Shown here in pieces: positions 5,762 through 52,898 of a DNA stretch of 64,000 bases. This stretch comes from a virus (taxonomy: Duplodnaviria > Caudoviricetes). The stretch lies in the IMG/VR virus record IMGVR_UViG_3300020411_000002; one strand, given 5' to 3'. The notes under the pieces were generated by a model that ran no database searches, was not told the DNA's origin, and saw only the letters and a list, made by a program, of their open reading frames with translations. Each line of letters starts with the position of its first letter. The first letter of the stretch is position 1. The position numbers and the translations under genes were made by a program.

Positions 5762-5776
5762 AAGAGTCTCTAATTG

Positions 5777-5799
5777 AAAAGAGGGGCATTGCCCCTCTT
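5777..5799 (-). terminator. Intrinsic terminator at the end of the paralogue array
   Basis: Minus strand AAGAGGGGC-AAT-GCCCCTCTT followed by T tract. Confidence 0.85.
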
Positions 5800-5809: not shown

Positions 5810-6334
5810 TTAAGTAAACGCTACGTCTAAATCGGTAGTAGAGTATTCGCGAGAATCAACAAAACCACCAAGTAGTTTCAAATCGGCGTCTGACTCTTCA
5901 TCGCCTACAGTACCTAGATATGATACGTTGGATCTTTCTGCTAGAGCAGGTAAGTCTGATTCTGTAACAATATTAGAACCTATATCTCTTTCTAATACCA
6001 AGAAAGCAAACCAAGTAGGCGTGCCTTCATTTATTTGTCTGAACAGTTCTAAACTTTCGCTTAGAGGCCACTGAACAAAGTTATAGTTCGGGAATCGAGG
6101 CTGCATACTCGAACCATACACGTTGAAGTTTAAAAGCGTATCTCCACGGTCAGAAGCCCAACTAAGAAGATTATTAACGATTACTTCTTGGTTGTCATCC
6201 ATTCCTTTTATAGCTTCTAGCTCTTCACGCGTAGGTTGCGTACCACCTGCAAAGACAAAAAGCATTTTAGAGCAAGGGGCACTAAAGGCAGAATAGTTAG
6301 ATAGTCTAACAAATGAATCTGAAACGTTTATCAT
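5810..6334 (-). CDS. Array paralogue, short form (putative virion structural protein)
   Basis: FVFAGGTQPT...WFAFL...GTVGDEESDADLKL core motifs. Confidence 0.7.
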   Translation of the reverse strand: MINVSDSFVRLSNYSAFSAPCSKMLFVFAGGTQPTREELEAIKGMDDNQEVIVNNLLSWASDRGDTLLNFNVYGSSMQPRFPNYNFVQWPLSESLELFRQINEGTPTWFAFLVLERDIGSNIVTESDLPALAERSNVSYLGTVGDEESDADLKLLGGFVDSREYSTTDLDVAFT

Positions 6335-7260
6335 TATACGTCCTCCACTTCGTCTGCAACAATTTCGCAGTGAACTAATCGAGCCGCTTGAGCAGGCTGG
6401 TGGTTTGTTTTAGCTAGAACCATTTCGGATGGTGATAGAGCGGAACCTACATTCATCCAAATGAAAGGAAAAGTTGTACCAAGTACATTTACCGAAGTAT
6501 GACTAACTAAGTCAAATAGAATAAGACCCCAAGTAACGTCATTCTTTGGAGTATTTACAAAGTCTGTTTTGTTAGAGAAGAAGTAAATACTTTCTATCCC
6601 CACTGTAGATATAGGTGCTACGTCAAACTGAACACGAACACGACTGCTATTAATAGGCTCTGCAAACTCTATTCTATCTTTCAGTTCATTTGAATCTACA
6701 ACTAAAGCAGTAGCCCAATCGCCGTTACCTTCATTTAGTGCTTCATCAAAGTACTTTACACTAAAATGTCCGTAATTGTAGGTAGCTGGAAAACGATAGT
6801 CAATACCATCAATTTGTGAATTTGCTTCAAATTCAAATTCAATGTAGTCCCCTACTTGTATGTACGTGTTACTGTACCAACGGTTAGACGGTAGGTGGTT
6901 AAATACATTAAGAAAATCGAAACGCTTAGCTTGTTCTATCTCTATATTTGTATCGACACTCAAAGGAACTAAATTGTTTACTTGTCCGCTACGATAAATA
7001 TCACTCCCATGACCCTTAAAGTGTATTCCAGTGTCTCCTGGTACACCTCTAAAGATAATAGAACTAGTATCGTCATTGTAAAGGAACTCAGACTCAATGA
7101 CTGCACTGCACTCGTTATACATAGATATCGGGTCTGTAGGGTCGAAAGTAAACAAATTTTTGTTAGCTGGAATATCTGAGCTAAACAAGAATATTTTACA
7201 TTGCTTTTTAGAAAGATTCTTTAAGGTCTTTCCTAGGCTTTTTGATTGCTCTATAATCAT
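6334..7260 (-). CDS. Array paralogue, long form with discoidin/F5-8C-like insert
   Basis: FLFSSDIP...FDEALNEGNGDW...SSRVRV...VTWGLI. Confidence 0.7.
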   Translation of the reverse strand: MIIEQSKSLGKTLKNLSKKQCKIFLFSSDIPANKNLFTFDPTDPISMYNECSAVIESEFLYNDDTSSIIFRGVPGDTGIHFKGHGSDIYRSGQVNNLVPLSVDTNIEIEQAKRFDFLNVFNHLPSNRWYSNTYIQVGDYIEFEFEANSQIDGIDYRFPATYNYGHFSVKYFDEALNEGNGDWATALVVDSNELKDRIEFAEPINSSRVRVQFDVAPISTVGIESIYFFSNKTDFVNTPKNDVTWGLILFDLVSHTSVNVLGTTFPFIWMNVGSALSPSEMVLAKTNHQPAQAARLVHCEIVADEVEDV

Positions 7261-7270
7261 TACATCAACC

Positions 7271-7831
7271 TTAATTAAGTTTGAATTTAATAGAAGACAG
7301 TTTGATAACTTTATCTAAAGTAACCTCAGTGTCAGAAATTTGAACCTCGCCGCCGTTTTCAACAGTATCAACGCGAGACATATTAATATAAAAAATAGCG
7401 TCAGTAGCGTCCACCAAAGGGTTTTCTAAATTAAAGTAATAAGATCTTACTACCATTGTAAGCAAGAAGCCTGCTTGACCTTCGGCTAATATATCAAACT
7501 TCGTTTCTGGACTTAATGAAGAATCAAATTCTATCAAGTCTTCATTAATTAGCGTCCACATTGAAGAATCGGCGTAAGTAAAACCTGTCGTACCCAAAAG
7601 AGTGTGTCCTAAATCATCTGAGATATAAGACAAAACATCTTTTATATTTACATTACCTATGTCACCAGTCGTTTGATTAAAGCGACCATCTTCTACAGCT
7701 TGTTGGAATTCATCAGCCGTAGGAGGCGTACCTGTGAAAAGTGCAAAAACCATTTGACCTTCATTAGTAACTTCGTATTCAATACCAACATAGTTGTTTG
7801 CCACAATAGACATTGATTTATTAATAAACAT
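7271..7831 (-). CDS. Array paralogue, short form
   Basis: LFTGTPPTADEF core; C-terminal GGEVQISD. Confidence 0.7.
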   Translation of the reverse strand: MFINKSMSIVANNYVGIEYEVTNEGQMVFALFTGTPPTADEFQQAVEDGRFNQTTGDIGNVNIKDVLSYISDDLGHTLLGTTGFTYADSSMWTLINEDLIEFDSSLSPETKFDILAEGQAGFLLTMVVRSYYFNLENPLVDATDAIFYINMSRVDTVENGGEVQISDTEVTLDKVIKLSSIKFKLN

Positions 7832-8859
7832 TAAAAGCTCTCCTTGGCTACAAACTTAAATTCAAGATTGAGCAAACTGTTAACACGCCCGGGTATAGGG
7901 TCTTCGTTAGAGAATATAGCTTCTCTTGGATCAAGAGGCCCACCAGCAGCGCTGACAATGTAAGGCATTTCAGGACTTACTTCAATAAATGTCTGATTTA
8001 CAGATAGTATACATGGAACTAGCAGCATCCAGCCGATAGTTGTTTGCGTATCTACTACAGTAGGTGTAGCACCGTAAAAAGAGATTTGTGCAATACGAGT
8101 ATTCAAGCTAGGAGAAGGTTCATTGAACTTAAAGCGAATTTTTCTAGTAGTCACTTCATCGAACCGAATCGTACTAAGACTAGATAGAGTTAAATCAACG
8201 GTATGGAAAGTTACCCAATCGCCGTTACCTTCATTCAAAGTATTATCCCAGCGCTGAATTTCTGTAGTCCCTACAAAAGCGTTGCTTTCTCGACTACTAT
8301 CGAACTCGATTAGATCGACAGGAACTTCTTTTTCAAAATCACACTCTAGATACAAGCCCGTAGTGCCTTCAGGAATCTCAGTATAAAAAGCAGCGTTGGT
8401 ATTAAAATCGTTCAGACCTGGAGTGAAGATAAAAGGAAAAGGAACTGTCGTTTCGTTTTCTGAAACTATCGAGTTTTTATCATAGTCTAATAGATTAGTA
8501 TTAGCAGTCTTAGGGATGTGTCTTGTCTTCTTCTTAGCATAGTCATAGTATCCTAACTTAGGAATACCAATAGGAACACCACGCTGCGACCATGCCACCT
8601 TGTCTTTTCTAGGACGAGAAGCTGTAACAAAGTTGGCTTGAACCATATTATTGTAGATAGCTTGCCAATTTAGAGTTCTGAAATCCTTAACAGGATAATC
8701 TAATATCTCATTAGAGTTAACAAACAAATCAAATGGTATTTCAGAGGGATTGGTAGGGGCAGTCCCTTCAAAAGCAAACGCGTAGTAATAAGGCCCTAGC
8801 TTGTCTACTATGTTGTGGGATCTAGTGTTACCAGAATAATCTAACATGCGTTTCCTCAC
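7831..8859 (-). CDS. Array paralogue, long form with discoidin-like insert
   Basis: FEGTAPT...WDNTLNEGNGDW...TRKIRF...IGWMLL. Confidence 0.7.
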   Translation of the reverse strand: MRKRMLDYSGNTRSHNIVDKLGPYYYAFAFEGTAPTNPSEIPFDLFVNSNEILDYPVKDFRTLNWQAIYNNMVQANFVTASRPRKDKVAWSQRGVPIGIPKLGYYDYAKKKTRHIPKTANTNLLDYDKNSIVSENETTVPFPFIFTPGLNDFNTNAAFYTEIPEGTTGLYLECDFEKEVPVDLIEFDSSRESNAFVGTTEIQRWDNTLNEGNGDWVTFHTVDLTLSSLSTIRFDEVTTRKIRFKFNEPSPSLNTRIAQISFYGATPTVVDTQTTIGWMLLVPCILSVNQTFIEVSPEMPYIVSAAGGPLDPREAIFSNEDPIPGRVNSLLNLEFKFVAKESF

Positions 8860-9602
8860 ATACTAAAACGGGGGTTATTAGAAGGTTCACCAGACGGAAT
8901 GAATTTTAAACCGACAGGTGATACGAATTTAAAGCTTGTTGGTTGAACTTCATTTTCTACAATGTTCATAAAACTAACAGGCTTGGTTTCTGTACTGACA
9001 CCAGCAACGTCAATAGTAGAATTTCTTGAAGCTACTACTGACTCAACATCTATATCGAAAGAGACTTGACCCTCAAAATAGGTTGCGGTAGTCCAAATAG
9101 ACTCGCCGTTCAAGAACTTTACGTCTAACGATGCAGGAGTCTTTAAAGTTCGAGTATCTAAGATTCGTGGAACAAATTCAGAAGGACCTAGTGCCTTGTC
9201 TATCTGTTCATTTATCTGCGAAAAGAACACAGTAGAGTACGTTACTTCTAAAGCTGGTTCAGCTTGCATCTGTTTTGACTCTGAACCTACTAGATAGGTC
9301 ATATAGTTAGAAGTTGTTACTGTACTTATTGTAGCATCTGCTACAAACTCACCTAGTATTGTAGCATCAAGAGAGTAAAGCATTGCAACCTTCTTAAACT
9401 CTTGATCTTCTAAGAAGTAAGTACTTTGAGTAGCTCCACTGGATAGGATACTTTCGGTGTTGAAGTTGCTTTGTGTTATCGAGTAAACTGATACAGGGCC
9501 TGGAGTCTTAAAGAAGTGAGAACCAGATAGATTCTCACCATCGAATACATAAGTACCGGGCTCAAACTGATCAGCTACATACGGAATGACTTGTAGTAGC
9601 AT
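8856..9602 (-). CDS. Hypothetical beta-rich protein inside the array (lacks the array core)
   Basis: 248-aa coupled ORF without the F-x-G-x-x-P motif. Confidence 0.6.
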   Translation of the reverse strand: MLLQVIPYVADQFEPGTYVFDGENLSGSHFFKTPGPVSVYSITQSNFNTESILSSGATQSTYFLEDQEFKKVAMLYSLDATILGEFVADATISTVTTSNYMTYLVGSESKQMQAEPALEVTYSTVFFSQINEQIDKALGPSEFVPRILDTRTLKTPASLDVKFLNGESIWTTATYFEGQVSFDIDVESVVASRNSTIDVAGVSTETKPVSFMNIVENEVQPTSFKFVSPVGLKFIPSGEPSNNPRFSM

Positions 9603-9611
9603 ATCTTTCCC

Positions 9612-10193
9612 TTATTCAGCAGGAGGTGTCTCTGGCTCGGCAGCAGGTGGAACAGGTTGTACATCAAATTGAATTACAACATCGTTCATTTTATGTCTGC
9701 GTGAAGTGCTGATTAGTGTATTTGCAATTTCCATATCCGACCCAGAGTCTACTGCACCTACTGTACCTACAACGTTCCAATAAGATACACTGTTAGTAGG
9801 GTTATTGTCTGGGTGTTGATACATCCAAAACCAAGTTGCCGTTTTATCGTCAGTAAGTCCGAAAGCAGTTTCATCACGTTGCGAAAACAAAAACTCTATT
9901 TGAGATTGCGTTACCAGTCGGCGCTGATTCATGTTATTGAACATGATATTCAAAAGCTCTGTATATCCAGCATTTGCGATAGCGTCTTTCATTTGACCTG
10001 CATACAACCAACCATCAGCATGGTAATTAGTTGTATCAGCAAGTGCTTGCATTTCTGCTTGCGTAGGAGGAGTACCGTCAAACAATATAACAGATATACT
10101 ATCGTTAGCGTTGCCGTAACACTCCCAATAGAGTTTAAGCAACATAGCCCTAAAGTCGTCATTAATTTCAATGTTCTGCATGTTTTTCTCCAA
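9612..10193 (-). CDS. Array paralogue, short form
   Basis: LFDGTPPTQAEM...ATWFW...GTVGAVDSGSDMEI. Confidence 0.7.
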   Translation of the reverse strand: MEKNMQNIEINDDFRAMLLKLYWECYGNANDSISVILFDGTPPTQAEMQALADTTNYHADGWLYAGQMKDAIANAGYTELLNIMFNNMNQRRLVTQSQIEFLFSQRDETAFGLTDDKTATWFWMYQHPDNNPTNSVSYWNVVGTVGAVDSGSDMEIANTLISTSRRHKMNDVVIQFDVQPVPPAAEPETPPAE

Positions 10194-10210
10194 ACTCGTT
10201 CATCTTTAAA

Positions 10211-11278
10211 TTAAAAAGTGTTGTCTATATCGATAAAGCCTCTTTGCAGTCGAGGTATATCTAAATTAGTCGCCTGTAGTGTATCAAACTCCAAGGGTGC
10301 GCCAGAGTTGTCTCCACTCTTACCTACGTTCAATAGCATAGCAGGATATCCTGGGTCTGGTTCAGCAAATGAACTAGCATATATCTTCTCATAGTAGCCA
10401 GAGTAAGTATCACGCTCAGGTAACATAAGAGCCCATGTAACAGTTCTTGAATCTTTACCCCAATCTGGTTCGTTTCCATAGAACTGAATTTGGTTCATAG
10501 CGAAAGTGCCGCCAGGTCCGTTACCAATTACCTTGAATCTGGTAGATATTATATCTGGAAATTCAAAATACATTTGAGTGCTATATACAGTATCATAAAG
10601 ATTATACTGGTCTACTGCTGTATACCAACCACCGTTACCGTCATTTAGTGTTTCGTCCCAAGCCTGTATAGTCCATAAGTTTGGTACGTTACCTGCGCTA
10701 GTCCAAGTCTTTAGAACCATTTGATTGATAGTTACAGGTTGGTCGTAAATAAACATGTGACCTGACGGACTAGAGTCATCAATAACTGAGCCGCCGTAGT
10801 TATTGATACTTTTTATTCGGTGTTCGTCATAGCGGCGAATCAATAAATCGTATCGATAAAGCCAGTGTGACTTACGTAGTGTATTTTCATCATCGTCATG
10901 AGAAGCTGGGTCTAGTAGTTGAGGTTCAAGTTCATCAGTCCAGTACTTTAGTGGAACACTACGTCTAGGTACTAGATGCCACTTGCGCCACTTAGGACTA
11001 AAGCCGTGTATATACGTTCCGAACTCCATGTCACCAGTAAGTGCCCAGTAATGTTTTGAATTTTCCGAAACTCTTTCTACATCAATCTGCTGGCTTGCAA
11101 CAGTATGCTTTTGCATTTCAAAAGGGTCTTTAATATCAAAAGGAAGATCGTTAATAGACTCAGGTGGCGTACCATCAAACAAGTGAAGCATAGCTGAACC
11201 TGTTTTCGGTGCATTAGTAGAAAACGCATAATAGAAAGCACTGATAGAAAAGCTTTCTTTAGAAGAAAATAAAAACAT
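10211..11278 (-). CDS. Array paralogue, long form with discoidin-like insert
   Basis: LFDGTPP...WDETLNDGNGGW...STRFKV...VTWAL. Confidence 0.7.
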   Translation of the reverse strand: MFLFSSKESFSISAFYYAFSTNAPKTGSAMLHLFDGTPPESINDLPFDIKDPFEMQKHTVASQQIDVERVSENSKHYWALTGDMEFGTYIHGFSPKWRKWHLVPRRSVPLKYWTDELEPQLLDPASHDDDENTLRKSHWLYRYDLLIRRYDEHRIKSINNYGGSVIDDSSPSGHMFIYDQPVTINQMVLKTWTSAGNVPNLWTIQAWDETLNDGNGGWYTAVDQYNLYDTVYSTQMYFEFPDIISTRFKVIGNGPGGTFAMNQIQFYGNEPDWGKDSRTVTWALMLPERDTYSGYYEKIYASSFAEPDPGYPAMLLNVGKSGDNSGAPLEFDTLQATNLDIPRLQRGFIDIDNTF

Positions 11279-11279
11279 G

Positions 11280-12410
11280 TTAACCCTCCGAGAACTTTAT
11301 GTTAAAGCTATTACATCTAACAATAGACCCACCATCTAGGTCTCTAGCTTTGTTTAGAATCAACATGTGGTTAGAGTCTGTTATGTCTCCTACGCTACAC
11401 ATCAAAATAGGAAGTCTACCTACTTGGGTCTCGCTGGAAGTATACACTCTTGGGAAATCATCAGTGCGATTTTCGTATGCATGTGGATAAACAAGAGCCC
11501 AAGTAATATCGTGAGTATCTTGTGCGTCATCAGGTTCAACACTAGACAACAAAGATATATGCTTGATATGCCAACTATATCTACCTGTATTTACCCCACT
11601 AACTTTAAACTTACGTGCAGTTACTTGTGGAATGTCCACAATTATATCTGACTCTACGTTAAAAGAAACTACAGATTCATCGTTGCGCCAGTGTTCTACC
11701 CACACAGAATTGGTTTCGTCCCAAACTTCAACAACTACAACACCGCTGGTATAAGGGGTTGAGCCGTGCGAATACACTTCTAACTTATCTACTGTTACAT
11801 CTTTACCGAAATCCATATATAGGCCAGTATCGTCGGAGAATGCGTATCGCCCACCAAAGTTTAATCCGTAATTAGCCCAAGTATCACCTTGGATGCCTGG
11901 AGTTCCTATATAACGCTCGTTGTAATAAGAATATGAACCGAAATAAGTTATCCAGCGGTGATGTTGAACTTCATTTAACGACAACTCATTTTCAGATCCA
12001 GGTTTAAGCGAGTATCTATCAGATGCATCCGCTCTATCAGGATTTGCTTCTAGATAATCAGTATGCAGTTCATACCTGCCTTGTGTCTTGGCATAAAGTC
12101 TCCAACATTTACGACGAAGATCCCAATGTGAAGATTTTACAGGAACTACGTTTAAGCTATGAAAAGATTCATGCGTATCGGCATTAGGTAATTCTCGAAC
12201 TTTACCAGATATCATAACTTGTGCAATACTGTTTCTATCAGTATCGTAAACGTTTTGAATATCCCAAGGAATTTCTTCTAGCGACTGAGGAACAGGACCA
12301 GAAAAAAGATAAACGTAGCTACGATCCCTACCTCCGGCGGTAGAATCATACGAAGTAAAGAACCTTGAAAAGGAATACGCGAAGCTACTTTTTGAACTAA
12401 AGGTAAACAT
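11280..12410 (-). CDS. Array paralogue, long form with discoidin-like insert
   Basis: LFSGPVP...WDETNSVW...ARKFKV...ITWAL. Confidence 0.7.
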   Translation of the reverse strand: MFTFSSKSSFAYSFSRFFTSYDSTAGGRDRSYVYLFSGPVPQSLEEIPWDIQNVYDTDRNSIAQVMISGKVRELPNADTHESFHSLNVVPVKSSHWDLRRKCWRLYAKTQGRYELHTDYLEANPDRADASDRYSLKPGSENELSLNEVQHHRWITYFGSYSYYNERYIGTPGIQGDTWANYGLNFGGRYAFSDDTGLYMDFGKDVTVDKLEVYSHGSTPYTSGVVVVEVWDETNSVWVEHWRNDESVVSFNVESDIIVDIPQVTARKFKVSGVNTGRYSWHIKHISLLSSVEPDDAQDTHDITWALVYPHAYENRTDDFPRVYTSSETQVGRLPILMCSVGDITDSNHMLILNKARDLDGGSIVRCNSFNIKFSEG

Positions 12411-12412
12411 AA

Positions 12413-13486
12413 TTACTCCAAAAACAGTTTCAAAGAAGTAGGTTCAATCTTTTGTTTTGCACCTATGTCCGTAGCTTTTTCTACAAACAGTGTTCCAAAA
12501 GAATCATTATCCCCTACAGTCATTGCCAGCAAAGGACAATTACTTTGTGTGCTATAGTCTGCATGTATGTTATACATATCAAAATCAGTACCACTATATC
12601 TATTATAGACACCGTTCCAGTAAGGCAGCATTATACACCAACGAACTGTTTTGGTAGTATCAATATTGACAGGCTCTGCATTGGTATAAAACGTTAGATA
12701 CTTTAATATCCAACCGTAATAACCTGTGTCTCCCGGTACAAGTCGAATCGTCTTAGCAACTACAGGATTAGCGAGAGCAACAAATGATTTATCATTGCCG
12801 CCTGGATACGACACACGTTCCGCTCTGTCCCACTCTTGGGTGTCTTCGTTAAACACATCTAAGTCAAAGTATGAGTTATCGTAACGAGAGCCTGAATGAG
12901 TTTGATGAATACCTACGTGTGAAATAGTCTGCTCCGTTTCAAACTCTACAACAAATGGGTCGTTGTATGCATATCGATTAGGAGATACATAGAACTGACT
13001 TGCACTATTGCCTTCTACATAATCGTCAGGGTCTAAACTCATAGCCAAGAAAGTAGGTACTATAGTTCTAAATCCAGAGAATTGATCTTCTGTGGTTAGC
13101 GTACCTGCTCTTTCTTTTTGCCAGTTTTCCTCGTTCACTACTAAACGTGGGAAAATGCGCCAAACACTATTCGCTTCGTCTAGATAAGGAATGTTGATAA
13201 GGCTAGCCTGGTCAACTGAACCATCACCTCTTACCAGATAAGGGTCTAGTTCGAAAGCACCACTGTCTGAGTGGTACGTTATGTTTGAGTGCGTGTGTGC
13301 GCAACTATTTCTGACTATATCAAAAATGTTCTTGGTATCAAAAGGCGCTTGTGCTAAAGAGCTAGGTGGTTCACTGTCAAAGTAGAAAATCATACCTCGA
13401 CCACCACCGCTTTGCGCTTCTGCTTTTCCTAAGAATATTTCCGACATAGAGTGCATCTGTGCATGTTGATGTTTAAATAAATACAC
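12413..13486 (-). CDS. Array paralogue, long form with discoidin-like insert
   Basis: YFDSEPP...FNEDTQEW...AKTIRL...VRWCI. Confidence 0.7.
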   Translation of the reverse strand: MYLFKHQHAQMHSMSEIFLGKAEAQSGGGRGMIFYFDSEPPSSLAQAPFDTKNIFDIVRNSCAHTHSNITYHSDSGAFELDPYLVRGDGSVDQASLINIPYLDEANSVWRIFPRLVVNEENWQKERAGTLTTEDQFSGFRTIVPTFLAMSLDPDDYVEGNSASQFYVSPNRYAYNDPFVVEFETEQTISHVGIHQTHSGSRYDNSYFDLDVFNEDTQEWDRAERVSYPGGNDKSFVALANPVVAKTIRLVPGDTGYYGWILKYLTFYTNAEPVNIDTTKTVRWCIMLPYWNGVYNRYSGTDFDMYNIHADYSTQSNCPLLAMTVGDNDSFGTLFVEKATDIGAKQKIEPTSLKLFLE

Positions 13487-13497
13487 AAGTTACCTCT

Positions 13498-14859
13498 TTA
13501 TTCTTTAACTATAAATAAACCATCGCTAGTATAAACCTGGGCTAAGTTACCTGACCTACGATAATCGAAGTAATAATATCGATAGTAGTCCCTAGGTCCT
13601 GCCATCATTAAACTAGTTCCTTCGTCTGCTGAGTAACTGCCGTACCCACTATAGCCGTAAGCATCATGTAATGTCCTACCAAAGTCACGATACCATAAGT
13701 CTAGTTTTTCTCTACTAAATGTACCAGTAGGTCCGTTACCTGCATAGTCTGCTTCTTCCTCTGCAAACCAAGACAGTAAAGCTTGAACCTCATCTTGAGT
13801 AGCCAGACGGTGGTTTGCAAATTCAGGTCTGTCGGTATCTAAAAACTCTTGAATACTCATTTCTCTAGTATGGTAAAGCTTCAACCAAGTTAAGCCTACA
13901 TGCGTAGAGTACTGAGCGTCTGAGAATAGAGTTTCTTTTGGATACAAAGGAGTTTGGACAATGTAGTCAGGCTCAATGCCTTTACGTACAAGCATAACAC
14001 CAGTATCAGATCTAGAATACGTTATGTCTTGGTCGTATCTCCAATCAAAGACACTTCCATTAGACCAGTAACCCCCTCCACCTAATTTCTCACTTTGCTC
14101 TGAGTTAGGTTGATCTCTGGAAAACTCATACCACCAGCCGTATGCAGGTCCACCTAAATATTCTCTTAAAGCGTTATCAATTTCAGTAGGATAACTACGA
14201 GATATAGCAGGAGATCCACAGATAGAGTCAAACAGAGTAGCAGAAGGGTCAACAGATCTAATTATGTTATTTATAAACGTAATAGCTTCGTAGTTGTTAG
14301 CTACTCTCCAACCTGAGAACATTGGGTCATCTTCAACTTCTTGTATACTCTTGCCGTTAGTTTCGCTAAGTTTCAACCACTCTAGACCAGTATAGTGATC
14401 GGCTGTTATTAAAGCGTCACCTCCTCCTATCATGTCTCTGTGTGTAATGCCTTCATCAAGTTCTACGTTAGTCGAGGGCTCTTCAATAGTTAAAAGATAT
14501 TGATGATCAGTTAACGTATAAGGACTATCTACCTCGAACAAAGCAAATAAAACATCAAGTCCGCTGCTTTTAAAATTTAGACTGCAAGAATCTAAGTCAA
14601 CTGTAGCAGGAATACTTAAAGTGAAAACAGGTTCAGCATACAAGTAATATTTAGAACTGTCTGTTAAGTCACTAGGTATAGAACCTGATATAGTTTTAGG
14701 TTTAAATATTTGAGATACATCAGACTCTTTTACCAATATGTTATCGAATGTACCTTTTTCAGTAGTTACTTTTATGTCTATTTTGGCAGGATACGGGTAT
14801 ATCCTGCCTGGGTCTCCAAACGCACTATAAATAGTGTCTACGGAAAGTAGCTTACTCAT
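13498..14859 (-). CDS. Putative adhesin with two tandem C-type-lectin-like (DUF1566/Lcl-like) domains
   Basis: Repeats TGLEWLKL..T...SIQE..GWR.A...E / VGLTWLKL..T...SIQE...HRLA...EV, ending GVMLVRK and GLFIVKE. Confidence 0.55.
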   Translation of the reverse strand: MSKLLSVDTIYSAFGDPGRIYPYPAKIDIKVTTEKGTFDNILVKESDVSQIFKPKTISGSIPSDLTDSSKYYLYAEPVFTLSIPATVDLDSCSLNFKSSGLDVLFALFEVDSPYTLTDHQYLLTIEEPSTNVELDEGITHRDMIGGGDALITADHYTGLEWLKLSETNGKSIQEVEDDPMFSGWRVANNYEAITFINNIIRSVDPSATLFDSICGSPAISRSYPTEIDNALREYLGGPAYGWWYEFSRDQPNSEQSEKLGGGGYWSNGSVFDWRYDQDITYSRSDTGVMLVRKGIEPDYIVQTPLYPKETLFSDAQYSTHVGLTWLKLYHTREMSIQEFLDTDRPEFANHRLATQDEVQALLSWFAEEEADYAGNGPTGTFSREKLDLWYRDFGRTLHDAYGYSGYGSYSADEGTSLMMAGPRDYYRYYYFDYRRSGNLAQVYTSDGLFIVKE

Positions 14860-15396
14860 TTACATCACCAATAAATCACCTACGTCAATACTTAGACTGG
14901 ATGGGAAAATTAAGTCTTGGTCTGTAAGATTTAATTTAACTAGCTGCATATCTCCGCCTTCACCCATAAGACTTACTGCACCTGTGAATGCATAGTGCTG
15001 ATTATCAAGAGAAGCCGACATTGACCGTATAGCAAACCAACTAGCAGTACCAGAATTAAACTGATTTTGTGCGTGTGCGTCTTTGGTGTAATCAGCTCGG
15101 TCTCGTTGATTAAACTTAAAAGATACCACGTTATCTTCGATAGAGATATTTTTAGAAAAATCGTTTAAGACAAAACGGCGAATTATATCCATACTTCTAT
15201 TAGAAGTGAAGGCATCCCACTTAGAAGGGTCAATCCATCCAGTTCCATCTGGTAGGTAAATGTTTGAAAGTTCTAATTCAGATTTAGTAGGAAGAGTACC
15301 AGCATAAATATCTAGTATCATTGAGTGACCTAAGTCCTGACCAAATCTATTTTGCAAAGAGAAATTTAATATATCACTAGTTGCAAGAATAGTCAT
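14860..15396 (-). CDS. Array paralogue, short form
   Basis: IYAGTLPTKSEL...ASWFAI...GAVSLMGEGGDMQL. Confidence 0.7.
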   Translation of the reverse strand: MTILATSDILNFSLQNRFGQDLGHSMILDIYAGTLPTKSELELSNIYLPDGTGWIDPSKWDAFTSNRSMDIIRRFVLNDFSKNISIEDNVVSFKFNQRDRADYTKDAHAQNQFNSGTASWFAIRSMSASLDNQHYAFTGAVSLMGEGGDMQLVKLNLTDQDLIFPSSLSIDVGDLLVM

Positions 15397-15938
15397 TACG
15401 CAATCCTACCATTGATAGAGAAGTTTAAAGTAATATCACTGAGCTTGAAAGGTATAGAAGGGTCAAGCTCAACATTAGACAGTTCCATATCAGCACCAGA
15501 GCCTACAGCACCAATACTTCCAGCAACGGCCCAATAACTAGTGGTGTTCTGAAACATTGCTGATGCAGCACCGTATTGGATAAAGAACCAACCTGCTGTA
15601 CCGGCTACATCCGGGTTGAAACGCTCACTACGTTTAGAAAAATACATACGAACTTTCTCAGGCTCTAGATGCTCTTGATACACGAAGTTGATATAAGAAC
15701 CAGTTAAAAGAACTGTATTTCCAGAACCGAGTGCTTCCATGTTGGTACGAAAGGATGCATTGAAATAAGGCCAACCGTGCGCATGATAACTATCTACACA
15801 GCCAAGTAAGTCTTCTTTACTTGGCAGAGAGCCTTGCATAATAGCAAAAGTTATTTCATCGTTTCTATTAGTACTATCTGCGAACATTGTTTTCAACAAA
15901 GAAGATTTGAATGAGTTATTAGGTATAATTTTAGGCAT
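15396..15938 (-). CDS. Array paralogue, short form
   Basis: IMQGSLPSKEDL...AGWFFI...GSIGAVGSGADMEL. Confidence 0.7.
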   Translation of the reverse strand: MPKIIPNNSFKSSLLKTMFADSTNRNDEITFAIMQGSLPSKEDLLGCVDSYHAHGWPYFNASFRTNMEALGSGNTVLLTGSYINFVYQEHLEPEKVRMYFSKRSERFNPDVAGTAGWFFIQYGAASAMFQNTTSYWAVAGSIGAVGSGADMELSNVELDPSIPFKLSDITLNFSINGRIA

Positions 15939-15948
15939 TGCTGTTACC

Positions 15949-17184
15949 TCAAGCGTCTGTAAAGTCTAAAATGAAATTGGCAAGTTCAGGCACTTGACCC
16001 GGTTTAATGTTACGTGCTTTGGTTAGAGTTACCGCAGCATCTTTGTTCGGTCCGTCTACATCTACGAGAAGTAAAGGAATTGGAAGTTTGCTTACTTCTG
16101 GACTTTCAACAAGATTTTGGTCAGTGAACCAAGCTTCTTTTACGTCATCAGAGGCATAGTAATCACGATACATAAAGTCATCAAAAGAGAAAGCTCTATC
16201 GTGATAAGGAAGAATAAGGCCCCAAGTTATATCAGTATCAACAGGCATTGTAGGAGGAGGAGTAGAACTTAACAGTCTTACGTATCCAAAGTTCATATCG
16301 TAATAACCCGAATCGTTAAAAGTAAGTCTAAACGCTTTACCCGTTACAATAGTTTCAAGCTCAATGTACTGAGCTTTACTGTCAACACCGTTTTCTTCAA
16401 GGTCAACACGTTGAGTACTAGTCCAATCTCCATTTCCATCATTTAAGGTCTCGTCCCAAACTTCAACGTCTACCTGAGAACTTGAGTATCTGTTATCTGA
16501 GAAATCGCCTCTGTAGTATTCTAAGGCGTCTACTTCAATAGCTTCATCAAATTCTAGTATTAAAGGATAATCTTGGGCACCGCGTGGACTGTATCTGCTA
16601 TAGTAACTGTAATCTCTACCGTTAGTAGCGTTACTGTCCTGCGGCTGATCTGAGCGATTACGGTCGCGGAAACGATTTAGATTCCAGTAATAACGCATAC
16701 CTAGCATTATATAGTTGTACCTGAACTCGGTATGAATCATAGAGCTGTGGTTATACTCTACACGTTGAGCAGGCGAAGAAGAAGTGGTTAAGTTTTTAGA
16801 TCTAATGTTGTCTAAAGTACCTGACTTCCAATCCTTCCATGCTTCTTCACGCAACATTACGCGTGGATAAAAAGACCACTTGTTGTAGTTCAAATCCAAG
16901 TAAGGTTGCTTGGGCGTAAGATACGTTCTAGTATGACCAGCCATAAACGAATCAGACGTAGGTTCTGTTTCTAGTTTATTCATAGTCATTGAGATACCAA
17001 CTTCTGCTTGCGCATACATTTCTAACAAATCACTTTGGTCGAAAGGCAAAGAGTCTAAGTCAGTAGGAACAGGGCCTTTAAAACCAAGAAAGAATAAATC
17101 ACATGCGTATAATCCTCTATTGTCATTAAGACCTGAATAGCAAAAGCTGTGTGCAAAAGTAATTGAAGGTTTAAGTGTATACAT
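15949..17184 (-). CDS. Array paralogue, long form with discoidin-like insert
   Basis: FKGPVP...WDETLNDGNGDW...GKAFRL...ITWGLI. Confidence 0.7.
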   Translation of the reverse strand: MYTLKPSITFAHSFCYSGLNDNRGLYACDLFFLGFKGPVPTDLDSLPFDQSDLLEMYAQAEVGISMTMNKLETEPTSDSFMAGHTRTYLTPKQPYLDLNYNKWSFYPRVMLREEAWKDWKSGTLDNIRSKNLTTSSSPAQRVEYNHSSMIHTEFRYNYIMLGMRYYWNLNRFRDRNRSDQPQDSNATNGRDYSYYSRYSPRGAQDYPLILEFDEAIEVDALEYYRGDFSDNRYSSSQVDVEVWDETLNDGNGDWTSTQRVDLEENGVDSKAQYIELETIVTGKAFRLTFNDSGYYDMNFGYVRLLSSTPPPTMPVDTDITWGLILPYHDRAFSFDDFMYRDYYASDDVKEAWFTDQNLVESPEVSKLPIPLLLVDVDGPNKDAAVTLTKARNIKPGQVPELANFILDFTDA

Positions 17185-18311
17185 TATTCACTTCCCAAAA
17201 GCTTCAAGTTAAAATCTAAAATCTGAACCTCACTTAGTGCTTCCAGACCTCGGCTCTTGTTTAAGGTAACTGCACAACCATCACCAGATTCTCCTACGTC
17301 TAAGAATAGAAAAGGATAGCCTTCACGATTCCATAGAGTAGATTCTGTTTCAAAAGAGCCGTATCTAATATTGGGAGAGTCATAGATGTTGGTGGCGTTT
17401 GTATAAGAAAGAGCAGCCCATGTAATATCTACAGGTCCAGTACCGTAAGTAGGTTCTGTACTTGAACATAGGTGGATAAAGAGCAAATACGGGTGATACC
17501 CGCCTGTGTCGGACATGCGTAACTTGAATTTCTTTGCAGTGTAAGACTGAGAAAAAGAAACCAACTGCGCCTGTGATGTACCTTTAGTTACAGATAGTCT
17601 TTCCATATCTACCCAAACTTCATCTACTTCGTTCCAATATTGGAAGTCGTAGTGCTCACTTGCGTAAGCGGTCCCTGTAGAACCTAAAGCCAAGAACATA
17701 CTATCTACAGTAACAGCCTGGTCATACGTAAATACCATTGGGAATCTATAAGGGTATCTAGATAACTTGGTGTTAAAGTTATCAGTCTTGTACCAGCGTT
17801 GTCTAGGAGAGTAACGCAATACATCAAGATTGTACGCATCCCGCATTTCATTCATTTCCCAAACTAGGCTTCGAGAAAGACCGTCAGTGCCTTCGCCTTG
17901 TAGGTCTCCAGGCTCTACGTTCTCTAACCACTTAGCTGTGCCTTCATGAGTTCTAGAAAGCGTTAGCAAAGAGTGTGAAAGAATCCACTTTTGCATTGCA
18001 GGTACAAACTTGTGACGTTTAACCGTTATCCAGTTTTCCACATTACTGTAATTGAATTGAGAAACACCGGGTTTATCTAAAATAGGATCGCCGTTAAGCT
18101 GACTCATTGCTATGCTGTTTCGAGAGAACTCAGCAAAGTTAGTCTGCATTTCTATTGGAACGTCTTGTACTGAGTTTGGCACATCACCTGTAAAGAAGTA
18201 CAGTACAGTGTTATGATTGTAGTTCGATACGTAGTTTGCAAAGTTATTGGTAAAACTATGACCTAAAGCCATTTGTGAAATTAAGCTATACATGTTAGTC
18301 CTTAAATACAA
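17184..18311 (-). CDS. Array paralogue, long form with discoidin-like insert
   Basis: FFTGDVP...WNEVDEVW...AKKFKL...ITWAAL. Confidence 0.7.
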   Translation of the reverse strand: MYLRTNMYSLISQMALGHSFTNNFANYVSNYNHNTVLYFFTGDVPNSVQDVPIEMQTNFAEFSRNSIAMSQLNGDPILDKPGVSQFNYSNVENWITVKRHKFVPAMQKWILSHSLLTLSRTHEGTAKWLENVEPGDLQGEGTDGLSRSLVWEMNEMRDAYNLDVLRYSPRQRWYKTDNFNTKLSRYPYRFPMVFTYDQAVTVDSMFLALGSTGTAYASEHYDFQYWNEVDEVWVDMERLSVTKGTSQAQLVSFSQSYTAKKFKLRMSDTGGYHPYLLFIHLCSSTEPTYGTGPVDITWAALSYTNATNIYDSPNIRYGSFETESTLWNREGYPFLFLDVGESGDGCAVTLNKSRGLEALSEVQILDFNLKLLGSE

Positions 18312-19659
18312 GATTGAACTTTACTAACCCAGGCGTTTGTCCTGTAATTAGGCTCAGATTGTCTACTTCGATACTATCAGTTTCTGTAGTACCTACATCA
18401 CACAATATATAAGGAGTGAAGCCTCTAGAAGCTGTTAGAATTCTATCTTGTTGAGTTTCGAAATCCTCTGTAGGAATAATCATTGCCCACTGTATAGTCT
18501 CTAAAGACTCTGACGTATAGATAGGTTCAGCTTTAGAATAAGCAGACATGTGATTAATCGACCAATGTGGATCTCCACTGTATATGACAGTCTGTTTCAT
18601 TAGGCCATCAATGCATACAATTCTAACAAAGCTTTCTACCATTACTGGATCTATCTCTTTGCTAATGAAGCCTTCACCAGAAATAGAGTAAGTGTTACCT
18701 ATATCCCAAGTGTTACTTTCTGTATTCCATACGTCTACTCTAAAAGTTTCGCATGATGTGCTGTAAAGAGAGTTACCGCTCCAATGGGCTTGCTTTTGTC
18801 GAGAGTCAATTAAACGCTGGCGTAAAGATATAGCGCTCAGTATGATAGGCACTTCTGTTTCTGGAATATCATGTTTCTTGAAAGAAGTAAAATCTTCAAT
18901 AGTACCTGCATCGACCCAATATCCATTGTTATAAATATCGTCGTTTTTAAGTACATATATAGAAACGATTTCAGTACCACCAGCAACTAAATCAACTGCG
19001 TAATCTAATACAGAAACTACATTGCCTAATTCGTCGGCACTAGCAGTCTCTTGCTCAAAAGAATACGTTGACTGGTACGTACCTGAATCCAATGTGCTTA
19101 AATGGTGTTCGAATACAGTATCTAATAAAGACTGTTCTGACATTGTAGGTACGTAGTAATAAAGACGAGAGTTAAACAGTTGCTTAGTTCCAGAGAAGTC
19201 TAGTACTACACTGCTGTCTTCTCTACCTACACGTAAGAAGGCAGAATCTGCGATAGAGTTTTTGAATCCGTAGTCATATTCCACCTGGGCCCAAGTAGAT
19301 ATTGCACTTGTAAAAACAGGCATATCGTTATTTAGAATCTCGGTAGTGTAGAAGTTCTTGTACGGAACTTTTGAAAAGTTTTCTTGTGTAAGTCCTTCAC
19401 CTGTTTCTGGTATTGACTCTATCGTATTAGATAGAGATACACTGACAGTGGACTCGCCGGGCAAGCTCTGTGTTTGAAAATCGTTTAATCCAATAGCCCA
19501 ACTATGAACATGTTGAGAAATATCAACAATATCCAAAGGATTAAAAGGGAGCGATTGTAAGTCAGAAGGCATTTGTGACGCAAAGAAAAATACTTGATAC
19601 TTCAAGCCTACTTCGCTCATGCCTTCTGACATTATGTTTGAAATATTAATACCTTGCAT
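18295..19659 (-). CDS. Array paralogue, long form with enlarged insert
   Basis: FFFASQMP...WNTESNTW...IQWAMI; 454 aa. Confidence 0.65.
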   Translation of the reverse strand: MQGINISNIMSEGMSEVGLKYQVFFFASQMPSDLQSLPFNPLDIVDISQHVHSWAIGLNDFQTQSLPGESTVSVSLSNTIESIPETGEGLTQENFSKVPYKNFYTTEILNNDMPVFTSAISTWAQVEYDYGFKNSIADSAFLRVGREDSSVVLDFSGTKQLFNSRLYYYVPTMSEQSLLDTVFEHHLSTLDSGTYQSTYSFEQETASADELGNVVSVLDYAVDLVAGGTEIVSIYVLKNDDIYNNGYWVDAGTIEDFTSFKKHDIPETEVPIILSAISLRQRLIDSRQKQAHWSGNSLYSTSCETFRVDVWNTESNTWDIGNTYSISGEGFISKEIDPVMVESFVRIVCIDGLMKQTVIYSGDPHWSINHMSAYSKAEPIYTSESLETIQWAMIIPTEDFETQQDRILTASRGFTPYILCDVGTTETDSIEVDNLSLITGQTPGLVKFNLVFKD

Positions 19660-19667
19660 GTTATTTC

Positions 19668-20654
19668 CTAAGTATTAAAACGTATAGATGTTCCTATAAC
19701 TTCTGGATACTGATTTTCGTCAGGTTGCACATCTAAAGCAGAAATGTCCGCGACTATTATAGGTTTATCAATAAGTGCCGAAGCTAAGTTTTCTAATGCG
19801 CTGTCTAATCTAGGGACTATCAAAAGCCAATCAGCACTTGGAAAGCTATCAACAGGTTCGTCTGTTAGCGCTGTAAGATACTTAACGTTCCATTGAGGGT
19901 TTCCAAAAGTTCTATGACCTGGGTGGTTTCCCCAACTGCCGTCCCTGCTAACTATCTTAATAGCGCGAGTCTGTACTGGTGTATCTAAAGTTATTACATT
20001 TCCATTAGTGCCTAGATTTTCATATCTCTGCACTAGAACGAAACCTCCAGCACCTTCATTTTCATCATCAGACCAGTAATAAAAATCAACAGACGTAGCG
20101 TAAGCATACGCTCTATATCTAGCACCACCATATCGGTACTCTATAGAATTCTGATCAAAAGAAAACCCTGTTACGTTACGAACTTTATCGAATACTGCAA
20201 ATAAAGGTACGCCTGATCTACCTATACTAAATCCATTAAATCCATTGTTGGCTGTATTTTCTCTATAGAATAAAGAGTTGACCGAAATTTCAGTGCGAAA
20301 GCGTTCTGGATAAGAATCAAAGCTTATCTGATCCTCGTCAAAAGTTTTCCACCCTATATAGAAAGGACTGATTTCGTTATGCCCTTCTACAACACTAGGT
20401 CGAATTCCTATAGGTCTCATTCTCCACTGAGTTTTTGGACTAGACAAAAAATCAATAAATCCTAATGGCTTAGAATCTATGCTACCGTATAGATTATAGT
20501 AAACGGAATTTTCTATAAGAGATATGTAGTTCAAGTCGAATGGTATAGCATCTAAGCTTTGCGGCATAGTGCCTTGAAAAAAGAAAGCATCGAACCAATC
20601 GTAGTCGATAGAAAATCCAAATGCCGCTAATTTGTTTAAGTTAATTCCTTGCAT
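19668..20654 (-). CDS. Array paralogue, long form with discoidin-like insert
   Basis: FFQGTMP...WSDDENEGAGGF...TRAIKI; N terminus MQGINL resembles MQGINI of the neighbour. Confidence 0.65.
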   Translation of the reverse strand: MQGINLNKLAAFGFSIDYDWFDAFFFQGTMPQSLDAIPFDLNYISLIENSVYYNLYGSIDSKPLGFIDFLSSPKTQWRMRPIGIRPSVVEGHNEISPFYIGWKTFDEDQISFDSYPERFRTEISVNSLFYRENTANNGFNGFSIGRSGVPLFAVFDKVRNVTGFSFDQNSIEYRYGGARYRAYAYATSVDFYYWSDDENEGAGGFVLVQRYENLGTNGNVITLDTPVQTRAIKIVSRDGSWGNHPGHRTFGNPQWNVKYLTALTDEPVDSFPSADWLLIVPRLDSALENLASALIDKPIIVADISALDVQPDENQYPEVIGTSIRFNT

Positions 20655-20676
20655 AATCCTCGCCTAAAAACGCGGA

Positions 20677-20704
20677 AAGGGAGGGACCGTAGTCTTACTC
20701 CCTT
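20677..20704 (-). terminator. Stem-loop with C(UACG)G tetraloop just before the array; possible weak terminator or processing site
   Basis: Minus strand AAGGGAG-TAA-GAC-TACG-GTC-C-CTCCCTT; T tract displaced downstream. Confidence 0.5.
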
Positions 20705-20711
20705 AACAGGT

Positions 20712-21128
20712 TTATTCTCTGATTACTGCAAATACTGCTTTACCATCGATAGGTGTAGTGTTGAAAGTAATCTCTACAGTGTTTTCGTCAACTGTAGTAA
20801 TATCGTCAGGAACGATAACTTTGCCCGCACTATCAAATACCGTTACCAAGTACGCTACGCTATTCATGTTGTGAACAATATTCCACGTAGTAGCAGCTTC
20901 GCTTTGAGCATGAACATAGTTATCGGTGTTACCTGCAACATCGTCTAGTAGCACTGCTTGAAGTGTACCAGAAATGTTCATTAGTATTTCACCTTCTTTA
21001 AGCTCAATACCAGTAAGCTGACGAGGACCTGCACCTTGTCGAACAATAACAGAGTTAGCTGGAACATCACTAGGCAAGTACGGTCGCAAAGGAAGTTCTG
21101 TCTGAATGAAATCAGTAAAAGCACTCAT
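20712..21128 (-). CDS. Putative virion structural protein
   Basis: C-terminal YVHAQSEAATTWNIVHN..V.V.D...N.V.ITF module common in phage fibre-associated proteins. Confidence 0.6.
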   Translation of the reverse strand: MSAFTDFIQTELPLRPYLPSDVPANSVIVRQGAGPRQLTGIELKEGEILMNISGTLQAVLLDDVAGNTDNYVHAQSEAATTWNIVHNMNSVAYLVTVFDSAGKVIVPDDITTVDENTVEITFNTTPIDGKAVFAVIRE

Positions 21129-30608: not shown

Positions 30609-31554
30609 TTTTATTAACCAGTGAATTGCCCAGAGCGCCTCTTTGTGCTTGACGTTTCTTTTCAGCTTCTTCTTGCTTCTGCTTATCTTTGACTAATCGA
30701 CTATGCCAATAGAACAGCTTCATGCTAGGAGTGTCTTCATCGAGTACAGCGCCGGGAAAGTTACCAAACAAATTGTACTGCAAGTCCATAACTTTGTCGC
30801 CGGGAAGACTAGGTAGAATACTAAACAAGTCCGGGTCTTTAACGATATCGTACTCATGATCGCATGTTCCACATTTAAGCTTGTAGTTTATGCGAGTACC
30901 ATAAGGCAATGCTTTGAACTTATCAATGTTGGCACACGTTTCAAATATGTCGCCGTCCATTAATTCAAAGATTTCTAATGCATCATTTAAAGGACTGTCT
31001 ATCCACATCAAGTAAGGAACAAGATGTTCTAAACTCTCGTCTTCTAATAATTCTTCGGCATCTAATAGGTCTTGAACAATAGGGAATTTGTAGCCTTTGG
31101 GAAGTTTGAAGTTTGTGGGAATGACTTCAACAGAAGAACGTACCATATAGACTATCTCGGTATTCAAACGTGAACACGTTGACCGTTCATAGCCCATACG
31201 GTGTAGTGAAGCAGAATTAAGTGTGTCGAGTTTTCCAGACTTGTCTATTCGTTTAGGGAAACCCTCTACGTGAACAACTGGATTGACACACCGCCATTCT
31301 ACGGTGATAGAATTGTCAGGAAAGCTTTTCTGCTTCAACCAGAATAACAGATATTTAAAGTCAATGACTCTTAGTGTTTTAACATCAACGCTTATGTGCG
31401 TTTGAATCAAATCAACTAGAGTATGTATACTGCGGTGTCTGACGGCATTATCCAGAACACCTAAGTCTCCAATCGTAAGAGGTCTAAGCTTGATAGACTT
31501 GAAAGGATAAACAGAATAGTCGGAAATAATGCCACCAACGTCTAACCAACTCAT
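30598..31554 (-). CDS. Baseplate hub / tail assembly chaperone (gp26/gp51-like)
   Basis: IKLRPLTIGDL, DFKYLLFWLK, W.C and CGTC; paralogue of the upstream gene. Confidence 0.6.
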   Translation of the reverse strand: MSWLDVGGIISDYSVYPFKSIKLRPLTIGDLGVLDNAVRHRSIHTLVDLIQTHISVDVKTLRVIDFKYLLFWLKQKSFPDNSITVEWRCVNPVVHVEGFPKRIDKSGKLDTLNSASLHRMGYERSTCSRLNTEIVYMVRSSVEVIPTNFKLPKGYKFPIVQDLLDAEELLEDESLEHLVPYLMWIDSPLNDALEIFELMDGDIFETCANIDKFKALPYGTRINYKLKCGTCDHEYDIVKDPDLFSILPSLPGDKVMDLQYNLFGNFPGAVLDEDTPSMKLFYWHSRLVKDKQKQEEAEKKRQAQRGALGNSLVNKNGR

Positions 31555-52436: not shown

Positions 52437-52898
52437 TTAACTCAACATTGAAATAACGTTTCGTAAAATTTCAGCTTCGGGTATCTTGTACTTTTCAGAT
52501 ACTTGAGCTAAAGACTGAGTAAGCTTTTCTTTCACTTCATTAGAGGCAAGAGAAAGGTCTTTCTTTCGTTCACGATCTAAAGCTTTGTTCGTATTTTTGA
52601 TAAACGTAGGTGCTAGTGAGTTTAACACTCTTTCTATATCACCGATTTCAAGTTTACCGATATTGTACTCTTCGCGAAAAGCTACTATGTCTCGGTTGTT
52701 GCCTTTGATCATATTCTTAGTAAAAGTAATAATCTCTTCTGGCTTTAGCTTGGAAGTAGCTGTAATTTCAGATATCTCACCTAGAGCCTTCTTTGCGGCA
52801 TGAATGTTTCCATCAATAGCACTTTTTGCAAATTTTATTACATTTTTGATTAGCACACTAGAGCTTGCTAAAGAGGTTAAAGGTACACTTACTTTCAT
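52437..52898 (-). CDS. Hypothetical helical protein
   Basis: Start ATG 52898 overlaps the GT stop (ATGA); MKVSVPLTSLAS. Confidence 0.6.
   Translation of the reverse strand: MKVSVPLTSLASSSVLIKNVIKFAKSAIDGNIHAAKKALGEISEITATSKLKPEEIITFTKNMIKGNNRDIVAFREEYNIGKLEIGDIERVLNSLAPTFIKNTNKALDRERKKDLSLASNEVKEKLTQSLAQVSEKYKIPEAEILRNVISMLS

Follow-up and report, generated by a model that had tools for sequence, protein, structure and literature searches.

A tandem array of garland-type paralogues, nine of them carrying a discoidin-type insert, in the tail module of a marine jumbo myovirus

The DNA considered here is a stretch of 64,000 nucleotides (nt; hereafter the window) of IMG/VR record IMGVR_UViG_3300020411_000002, a marine myovirus of ~250 kb, and the element in question is an array located on its minus strand between positions 5810 and 20654. 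The array consists of 16 back-to-back open reading frames (ORFs), i.e., nine long paralogues of 308-454 amino acids (aa), five short paralogues of 174-193 aa and two unrelated genes, g07 and g12, and when read from g01 to g16, which is the order of transcription, it follows the pattern L L L L S S Y L L L S X L S L S (L, long; S, short; Y, g07; X, g12; Table 1). An earlier interpretation made from the letters alone, here referred to as the sequence-only reading, had described the ORFs and their sizes as they were found, whereby the order which it gave along the plus strand is the reverse of that of minus-strand transcription. The intergenic gaps amount to -17 to +17 nt only, so that the array has no room for internal signals, and directly behind the stop codon of g16 an intrinsic terminator is located, which was not picked up by a consensus scan but was recognised from sequence and fold. 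The tight packing of the genes and the 9-bp hairpin with T-run after g16 support the single operon and single terminator proposed by the sequence-only reading. A weak hairpin precedes g01 and could act as a leaky terminator or as an attenuator which sets the dosage of the array. Short contigs with at least 99% identity, coming from four metatranscriptome runs of two studies, tile most of the array; they are consistent with its transcription, carry-over of DNA being another possible origin. The TGTAAATA motif was found without enrichment in the window (7 sites versus 5.1 expected).

Table 1. Genes of the array and further features of the window, with the observations on which each assignment is based.
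Feature	Position	Strand	Basis
g01, long, 328 aa, most divergent and fastest-evolving	19668..20654	-	leave-one-out HMM E 1.2e-18; mean orthologue identity 42%
g02, long, 454 aa, largest insert	18295..19659	-	leave-one-out HMM E 2.2e-20, N and C parts each matched separately
g03, long, 375 aa	17184..18311	-	leave-one-out HMM E 1.2e-40; NCTB orthologue n05
g04, long, 411 aa	15949..17184	-	leave-one-out HMM E 1.3e-54; sub-threshold Pfam F5_F8_type_C E 5e-4
g05, short, 180 aa, modelled for core fold	15396..15938	-	AF2 pLDDT 77.5; VIA Z 10.5 to 9rkv_A
g06, short, 178 aa	14860..15396	-	leave-one-out HMM E 1.1e-9
g07, unrelated, 453 aa	13498..14859	-	member of neither family (HMM)
g08, long, 357 aa	12413..13486	-	leave-one-out HMM E 1.9e-40; sub-threshold Pfam F5_F8_type_C E 2.5e-4
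g09, long, 376 aa, modelled	11280..12410	-	AF2 pLDDT 70.9, pTM 0.77; Foldseek, VIA and atlas searches
g10, long, 355 aa	10211..11278	-	leave-one-out HMM E 3.4e-39
g11, short, 193 aa, tail rich in Pro/Ala/Glu	9612..10193	-	PHROG 17152 E 4e-5; leave-one-out HMM E 2.1e-27
g12, unrelated, 248 aa	8856..9602	-	member of neither family (HMM); NCTB orthologue 31% identical
g13, long, 342 aa	7831..8859	-	leave-one-out HMM E 5.6e-27; Pfam F5_F8_type_C_2 E 0.011
g14, short, 186 aa, without Trp of the T-W motif	7271..7831	-	leave-one-out HMM E 2.5e-13; alignment
g15, long, 308 aa, shortest long copy	6334..7260	-	leave-one-out HMM E 2.6e-22
g16, short, 174 aa, last gene of the operon	5810..6334	-	PHROG 17152 E 4.9e-15; leave-one-out HMM E 4.3e-10
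Intrinsic terminator directly 3' of g16 stop: GC-rich 9-bp stem, 3-nt loop, T-run	5775..5799 (hairpin 5799-5779)	-	sequence and fold, z = -2.98
Weak 7-bp hairpin between 138-aa gene and g01, T-run 6 nt downstream	20666..20704	-	fold z -1.26, not significant
Acb1 (anti-CBASS phosphodiesterase), 147 aa	4953-5396	-	Pfam E 1e-17; also 2'-5' RNA ligase superfamily
138-aa Ig-like protein, conserved partner of the 552-aa gene	20712..21128	-	PHROG and Pfam Ig-like; 74% identical in NCTB; PaBG gp092
552-aa conserved jumbo-phage tail protein	21128..22786	-	orthologue of PaBG gp093 (40% identity); homologue of phiKZ gp145 and relatives (28%)
Hub-like protein, 318 aa	30598-31554	-	PHROG 13792 (this or its neighbour also 'baseplate hub' PHROG 150)
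Hub-like protein, 254 aa, paralogous to its neighbour	31551-32315	-	PHROG 13792
Beta-1,4-glycosyltransferase-like gene	52895-54019	-	PHROG 13126 E 3e-47
NAD-dependent DNA ligase	54967-56988	-	E 5e-116

In an all-versus-all BLASTP comparison the nine long copies were linked at E 1e-3 to 1e-21 and the short copies were linked among themselves. Hidden Markov models (HMMs) were built in a leave-one-position-out manner, i.e., from all other array positions and the orthologues of three related genomes, and were searched for the omitted position, whereby nine of nine long copies (E 1e-18 to 1e-54) and five of five short copies (E 1e-9 to 1e-27) were recovered, and g07 and g12 were found to match neither family (E of at least 2.6). 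The shared motifs put forward by the sequence-only reading proved to be real, as F and P of an F-x-G-x-x-P motif and a late W are invariant in 36 of 36 long sequences, and G and P of this motif in 23 of 23 short ones. When the short and long profiles were initially compared with the insert of the long copies kept, the N-terminus alone aligned. After removal of the insert columns from the long alignment, hhalign matched the short profile in a colinear manner to the N-half (P 6e-4) and to the C-half (P 2e-4) of the long core, with the F-x-G-x-x-P, T-W and V-G motifs being in register, and with no significant match in the controls, which were the insert alone (P 0.14) and the reversed core (P 0.29). 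Further, a six-frame search with the short HMM matched the C-termini of two long copies of Phage NCTB (E 1.5e-3 and 9.7e-3), AlphaFold2 (AF2) models of g05 and g09 revealed the same order of a helix, the motif strand and then four closing strands, and the short model was found to resemble predicted long-type proteins of Dickeya phage JA13 and Erwinia phage Yoloswag (TMq 0.44-0.54). Each of these signals is moderate when taken singly, but jointly they support the view that short and long copies represent one core with or without an insert, which upholds the common core that had been proposed earlier.

The fold comparison of this core was based on the AF2 model of g05 (predicted local distance difference test score, pLDDT, 77.5), for which the sole Foldseek match at E <= 1e-3 was 9rkv_A (E 8e-5), and the same chain was matched by VIA with a Z of 10.5 (rmsd 3.2 Å, 133 of 139 residues). 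Entry 9RKV shows the fibre complex of this Agrobacterium phage (7-7-1), and the small chain in it is the garland protein gp014, homodimers of which, 36 by the count given in that work, ring the distal 7-7-1 baseplate (PMC12796354). In the 7-7-1 genome, two small ORFs, gp013 and gp012, come after F406_gp014 (141 aa), of which gp012 is paralogous to gp014 and gp013 is not detectably related; both gp014 and gp012 carry an annotation as structural proteins of the virion, and the particle structure resolves gp014. An exhaustive HMM search for the short-copy family yielded 391 cluster representatives (50% identity), mostly of 160-200 aa, and the family profile made from these and the window copies matched gp012 and gp014 over the full length with an hhalign probability of 97% (P 1.2e-10; reversed controls, P 0.19-0.27). 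A BLASTP bridge connects gp012 with the family member P0132 (E 1e-7), and a narrower profile, which comprised the five short paralogues of the window and their orthologues only, gave a probability of 82%. The core of the array is homologous to the garland-forming baseplate proteins of the Agrobacterium phages 7-7-1 and Milano and does not represent a new fold. Sequence-profile searches of the PDB returned chance matches only, namely an EF-hand on a G-T-x-P-T-x-x-E-L stretch and a CBM-like VHH construct (E 0.66), and the prediction of a g05 homodimer scored 0.01 against a mark of 0.42, a result which counts neither for nor against dimers. One candidate of the family search, the 2534-aa RHS-repeat protein P0050 (E 1.7e-12 via nine short stretches), was rejected as most likely being a repeat-driven false positive of the short-copy profile, and this case may serve as a warning when the short-copy family is turned into a database model.

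For the Milano garland proteins gp125 and gp127 it was stated that they possess the fold of T4 gp8 and A511 gp105, proteins which are dimeric connectors able to form 'beads on a string' (PMC10811340). The g05 model matched T4 gp8 (1n7z, Z 4.0), A511 gp105 (6hhk, Z 3.6), phi812 arm and baseplate chains (Z 3.8-3.9) and a KP1 baseplate chain (Z 4.7) with VIA scores that all lie inside the stated background range, and hence the link of the array core to T4 gp8 and A511 gp105 is drawn mainly from the published statement on Milano. In an atlas structure search, g05 was matched to a viral cluster with Pfam Phage-Gp8 at a template modelling score (TM) of 0.52 and to viral proteins of ~135 aa at TM 0.61/0.78; sequence similarity to T4 gp8, A511 gp105 or the phi812 arm-segment proteins was not detectable, and the window yielded no BW3 or gp7-like gene. 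The second and third VIA matches of the g05 model are neck/connector chains of Bas63 (Z 5.6) and Sf14 (Z 5.2), and as these share the fold weakly, the fold alone does not fix the location of the array proteins. Together with the adjoining 138-aa protein, which resembles Ig-like head-decoration domains, the two neck chains would fit array proteins that are placed elsewhere on the virion, as neck or collar whiskers or as capsid decoration, and use the same small fold as an adaptor. Such a placement is held to be improbable, as the Z values of Bas63 and Sf14 do not exceed the stated background range and are half of that obtained for the garland protein, as the sequence homology is to garland proteins, and as the array follows the spike and baseplate genes and is distant from those of head and neck.

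What distinguishes the long copies is their insert. In the model of g09 the core is formed by residues 1-96 and 298-376, and residues ~97-297 were modelled as a discoidin-type domain, which includes a low-confidence loop (residues 150-193). Foldseek gave 137 PDB matches at E <= 1e-3 for this model, all of which are discoidin, CBM32, F5-8C or DOC domains, and VIA matched residues ~97-297 to APC10, the DOC domain of BIRC6, muskelin, CBM32 modules and domain 1 of galactose oxidase with Z values of 10.3-11.7. In the ESM Atlas the g09 insert was matched to a stand-alone 134-aa F5/8 type C protein (TM 0.76). The Pfam gathering score for PF00754/PF22633 was reached by none of the nine long copies (g08, 21.6 bits and g04, 20.6 bits versus a cut-off of 28.2), F5_F8_type_C_2 scored 16.8 bits in g13 (cut-off, 27.8), and six long copies are without any Pfam discoidin match. 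The insert is established, by its predicted fold and not by Pfam membership, as a distorted beta-sandwich (jelly-roll) of the discoidin/CBM32 type, and what the sequence-only reading had termed discoidin-like was recovered both by the sub-threshold Pfam matches of three copies and by the Foldseek, VIA and atlas matches. Fold and phage context suggest that the inserts may bind carbohydrate. In a few metagenomic members of the family the core is joined to Laminin_G_3 or F5_F8_type_C, where the F5_F8_type_C match reaches 43.9 bits and hence exceeds the Pfam cut-off, so that the combination of a garland core with a lectin-type sandwich is a recurring design. At columns ~370-385 of the alignment of the long copies, a W-D-E-T-L-N-(D/E)-G-N-G-(D/G)-W loop is conserved within the discoidin domain in five of the nine, among them g04, g10, g13 and g15, and the remaining four possess a shorter W-(D/N)-E-x loop; judged by its residues, the D/N/G-rich loop insertion looks like a metal-binding loop.

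The major capsid protein of the phage is 48-54% identical to those of the Lu11/Y3/Yoloswag/AD1 lineage, and on the basis of its sequence it places the phage in the 'Lupandier' group, which comprises Lu11, PaBG, NCTB and Erwinia and Dickeya phages (PMC7412058). A megablast search of the array against 50,697 phage records gave no match. Among deposited relatives the array is present only in Phage NCTB (258 kb), which derives from a Trichodesmium bloom and in which the array is colinear with 1:1 orthologues, and three metagenomic genomes of 200-250 kb possess it in the same order, again with 1:1 orthologues; near-identical DNA was found in marine metagenomes of at least five studies. Given this colinearity and the strict 1:1 orthology in NCTB and the three genomes, each paralogue is old and fixed in its position. 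Between the window and the three metagenomic genomes, orthologue identity amounts to 42-79% for the array versus 85-88% for the genes of the 552-aa and 138-aa proteins, and an insert evolving faster than the core was ruled out, as identities are similar in the N-core, the insert and the C-core. The assumption of swappable inserts, as made in the sequence-only reading, had to be abandoned in favour of ancient, position-fixed and fast-evolving paralogues. In Yoloswag the gene run from gp87 to gp70 is similar, whereby gp70, gp72 and gp79 (short type) as well as gp75 and gp78 (long type) were detectably homologous by hhalign, and ten long proteins of the Yoloswag array gave no Pfam match; AD1 and Alexandra each encode at least three short copies. 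Distant copies were sought by unfiltered local HMM searches of whole genomes, and in PaBG and Lu11 no member of the short or the long family was found anywhere. In PaBG (43246-84865) the pair of 552-aa and 138-aa genes is kept and directly followed by HAD-like, SprT-like and thymidylate kinase genes, without the array, and in Lu11 (1-37000) synteny is lost after the PmgG-like gene. Within the Lupandier group the array therefore represents an insertion or a loss that is specific to certain lineages.

Parts of the Lupandier group have been described as 'hairy Myoviridae', the hair proteins of which were not identified (PMC6143709), and the array proteins might be sought among them, i.e., as whisker-like 'hairs' along the tail or at its end instead of as a baseplate garland. 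The phage belongs to the lineage in question by its capsid protein, homologues of the array proteins occur in Yoloswag, AD1, Alexandra and JA13/JA11, in part as arrays, and the array is missing from PaBG, which according to its description is a typical A1 myovirus whose appendages are small. However, Lu11 is cited as hairy and yet yielded no short or long copy, and as a consequence the array does not track hairiness cleanly. Moreover, most of the Yoloswag array genes are not detectably homologous, the clear solved relatives are all proteins of the baseplate periphery, and the sole solved precedent is a garland of dimers around fibre tips and not a fibre, so hairs of this kind are considered an unlikely identity for the array proteins. 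Slightly less probable still is the more elaborate version, according to which the array and its diverged counterparts in Yoloswag, AD1, Alexandra and the JA phages would encode the 'hairs' as a heteromeric polymer of 14 garland-fold subunits, nine of them lectin-bearing, in fixed order; if true, no known adhesion appendage of a phage tail would be richer in subunits than this polymer.

Upstream of the array and on the same strand, the genes of the major head protein, the sheath, hub-like proteins, the tape measure, a gp5-like spike, the 552-aa protein and the 138-aa protein follow each other in this order. The 552-aa protein is labelled 'tail sheath' (PHROG 15433, RefSeq) or 'tail assembly' (NCTB), but is without similarity to the real sheath encoded at 34493-36112, and the 'sheath' label of this family looks like an annotation error that spread through ~60 phiKZ-like records. 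A 54.9 kDa 'tail assembly protein' is present in the virion proteome of PaBG (PMC7412058). As gp145 is not placed by the phiKZ atlas paper, the 552-aa protein provides no anchor for the location of the array, and an atlas feature search with it gave weak DUF859, Gp10_C and Ig-like leads only. The two hub-like genes are paralogous neighbours and represent another tandem duplication in the tail module, and the beta-1,4-glycosyltransferase-like gene and the NAD-dependent DNA ligase gene are located upstream of the structural module. On the other side of the array, downstream of the terminator, a 122-aa ORF is followed by the Acb1 gene at a distance of ~0.4 kb from the array, the orthologue of which (42% identity) is located at the same place in NCTB. 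Considering this nearby anti-defence gene, the array could be conceived as a non-structural set of secreted or intracellular lectin-like proteins, with functions in host-surface remodelling or superinfection exclusion, which merely lies beside the tail genes. This is judged highly improbable, as N-termini resembling signal peptides were not evident when the translations were read by eye, as the array is co-oriented with and tightly packed behind the tail genes and ends with its own terminator before the next genes, and as the homologous gp014 and gp012 of 7-7-1 count among the virion structural proteins.

The two genes that are interleaved with the paralogues differ in their conservation. The g07 protein has 451-459 aa in the three metagenomic relatives and 136 aa in NCTB (17309-17719 of the compared stretch), and conservation between g07 and this NCTB counterpart is limited to the first ~60 aa. 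The C-terminal ~390 aa of g07, an add-on module which NCTB does not have, contain two GLxWLKL...SIQE...R-x-A repeats; atlas feature matches to Lcl_C clusters were obtained at 0.78-0.84, i.e., below 0.9, and as a lead only this part may be seen as two Lcl_C/DUF1566-like lectin repeats. The position of g12 is conserved in all relatives. Neither g07 and g12 nor their orthologues gave a Pfam match, and g12 was without an atlas match.

Taken together, the array is best explained as encoding a peripheral baseplate network of many subunits, in which 14 paralogues of the garland/gp8 type take part and nine of them carry discoidin-type modules for multivalent contact with host glycans, an explanation to which a probability of roughly 0.6 was assigned. 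According to this proposal, the array would be transcribed late, in one operon together with the tail genes, and each paralogue would take its own fixed place at the rim or in the distal part of the baseplate. The subunits would probably be dimers which are chained side by side, as they are in the solved garlands, and nine paralogues would expose a beta-sandwich of the discoidin/CBM32 type spliced between the two halves of the core; as a consequence, the rim would show dozens of lectin-like modules of nine kinds. These modules may then provide a weak, multivalent first contact with the host surface polysaccharide, and g07 and g12 would constitute two further, unrelated components of the rim. 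Location in the virion, assembly into dimers and chains, and glycan binding are what we infer from the homology, the fold and the position of the genes. In comparison with the sequence-only reading, which had proposed a co-transcribed set of virion appendage subunits, the shared core, the discoidin fold and the single operon were retained, and an appendage role is favoured by garland homology and by the position in the tail module; the swappable nature of the inserts was not retained. Several points weigh against the baseplate rim. The core fold is also found, weakly, in the neck/connector chains of Bas63 and Sf14 (Z 5.2-5.6), and presence of the proteins in the virions of this phage or of NCTB is argued from gene position and homology. 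Further, APC10 and BIRC6 equal the CBM32 modules in score, discoidin and DOC folds also bind proteins and lipids, and the Pfam discoidin matches of the window copies are sub-threshold.

Among known systems, the garland proteins of 7-7-1 (gp014 and gp012; 9RKV) and Milano (gp125 and gp127) come closest, with the same fold (Z 10.5), sequence homology (97%) and an arrangement as small tandem paralogues in the receptor-binding or baseplate region; the fibre gene of 7-7-1 adjoins its garland genes. In the solved particles the garland dimers ring the distal fibre and spike domains, and for the array proteins a comparable garland is a proposal. These phages have two paralogues of ~140 aa (three small ORFs in a row) without extra domains, whereas the array comprises 14 paralogues of 174-454 aa, nine of which carry the insert, with two unrelated genes interleaved, in a marine phage of ~250 kb. 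T4 gp8, A511 gp105 and the phi812 'BW3-tail fibre network connectors' probably belong to the same fold class, with low scores (Z 3.6-4.7; TM 0.52), but are located next to the wedge, are present as one or few copies and have no lectin inserts. F5/8 type C, CBM32 and DOC domains possess the same beta-sandwich as the insert (Z up to 11.7; TM 0.76), with the difference that the insert sits inside another domain instead of being appended to it and has a long variable loop. The hetero-hexameric baseplate fibres gp131/133/134/135 of phiKZ (PMC13250141) likewise are tandem paralogues with a common assembly domain and a differing outward-facing part, but are likened to the array by concept only, as their folds are unrelated (helical bundle, beta-propeller) and their paralogues fewer.

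The fold and the garland role were known already, as garland proteins had come to light in 2024-2025 in two Agrobacterium phages, where they occur as two small paralogues to which no function had been assigned. New, in that they were not described in the searchable literature, are how broad the family is, its expansion to an array of 14 genes, the insertion of a domain, and the occurrence in jumbo phages from the sea and of plant pathogens. At 50% identity the family comprises 391 clusters and is thus widespread; it has no Pfam model and is represented by PHROG 17152 under the label 'unknown'. It can expand to 14 position-fixed paralogues, and its core is a scaffold that takes up lectin-type domains (discoidin, ConA-like) either as insertions or as fusions. 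For the phage group concerned, ~15 'hypothetical' genes per genome would become annotatable, and the locus names candidate genes for the 'hairy' morphology in cultured Erwinia and Dickeya phages. It further provides a testable model for multivalent adhesion rims of jumbo phages with several specificities.

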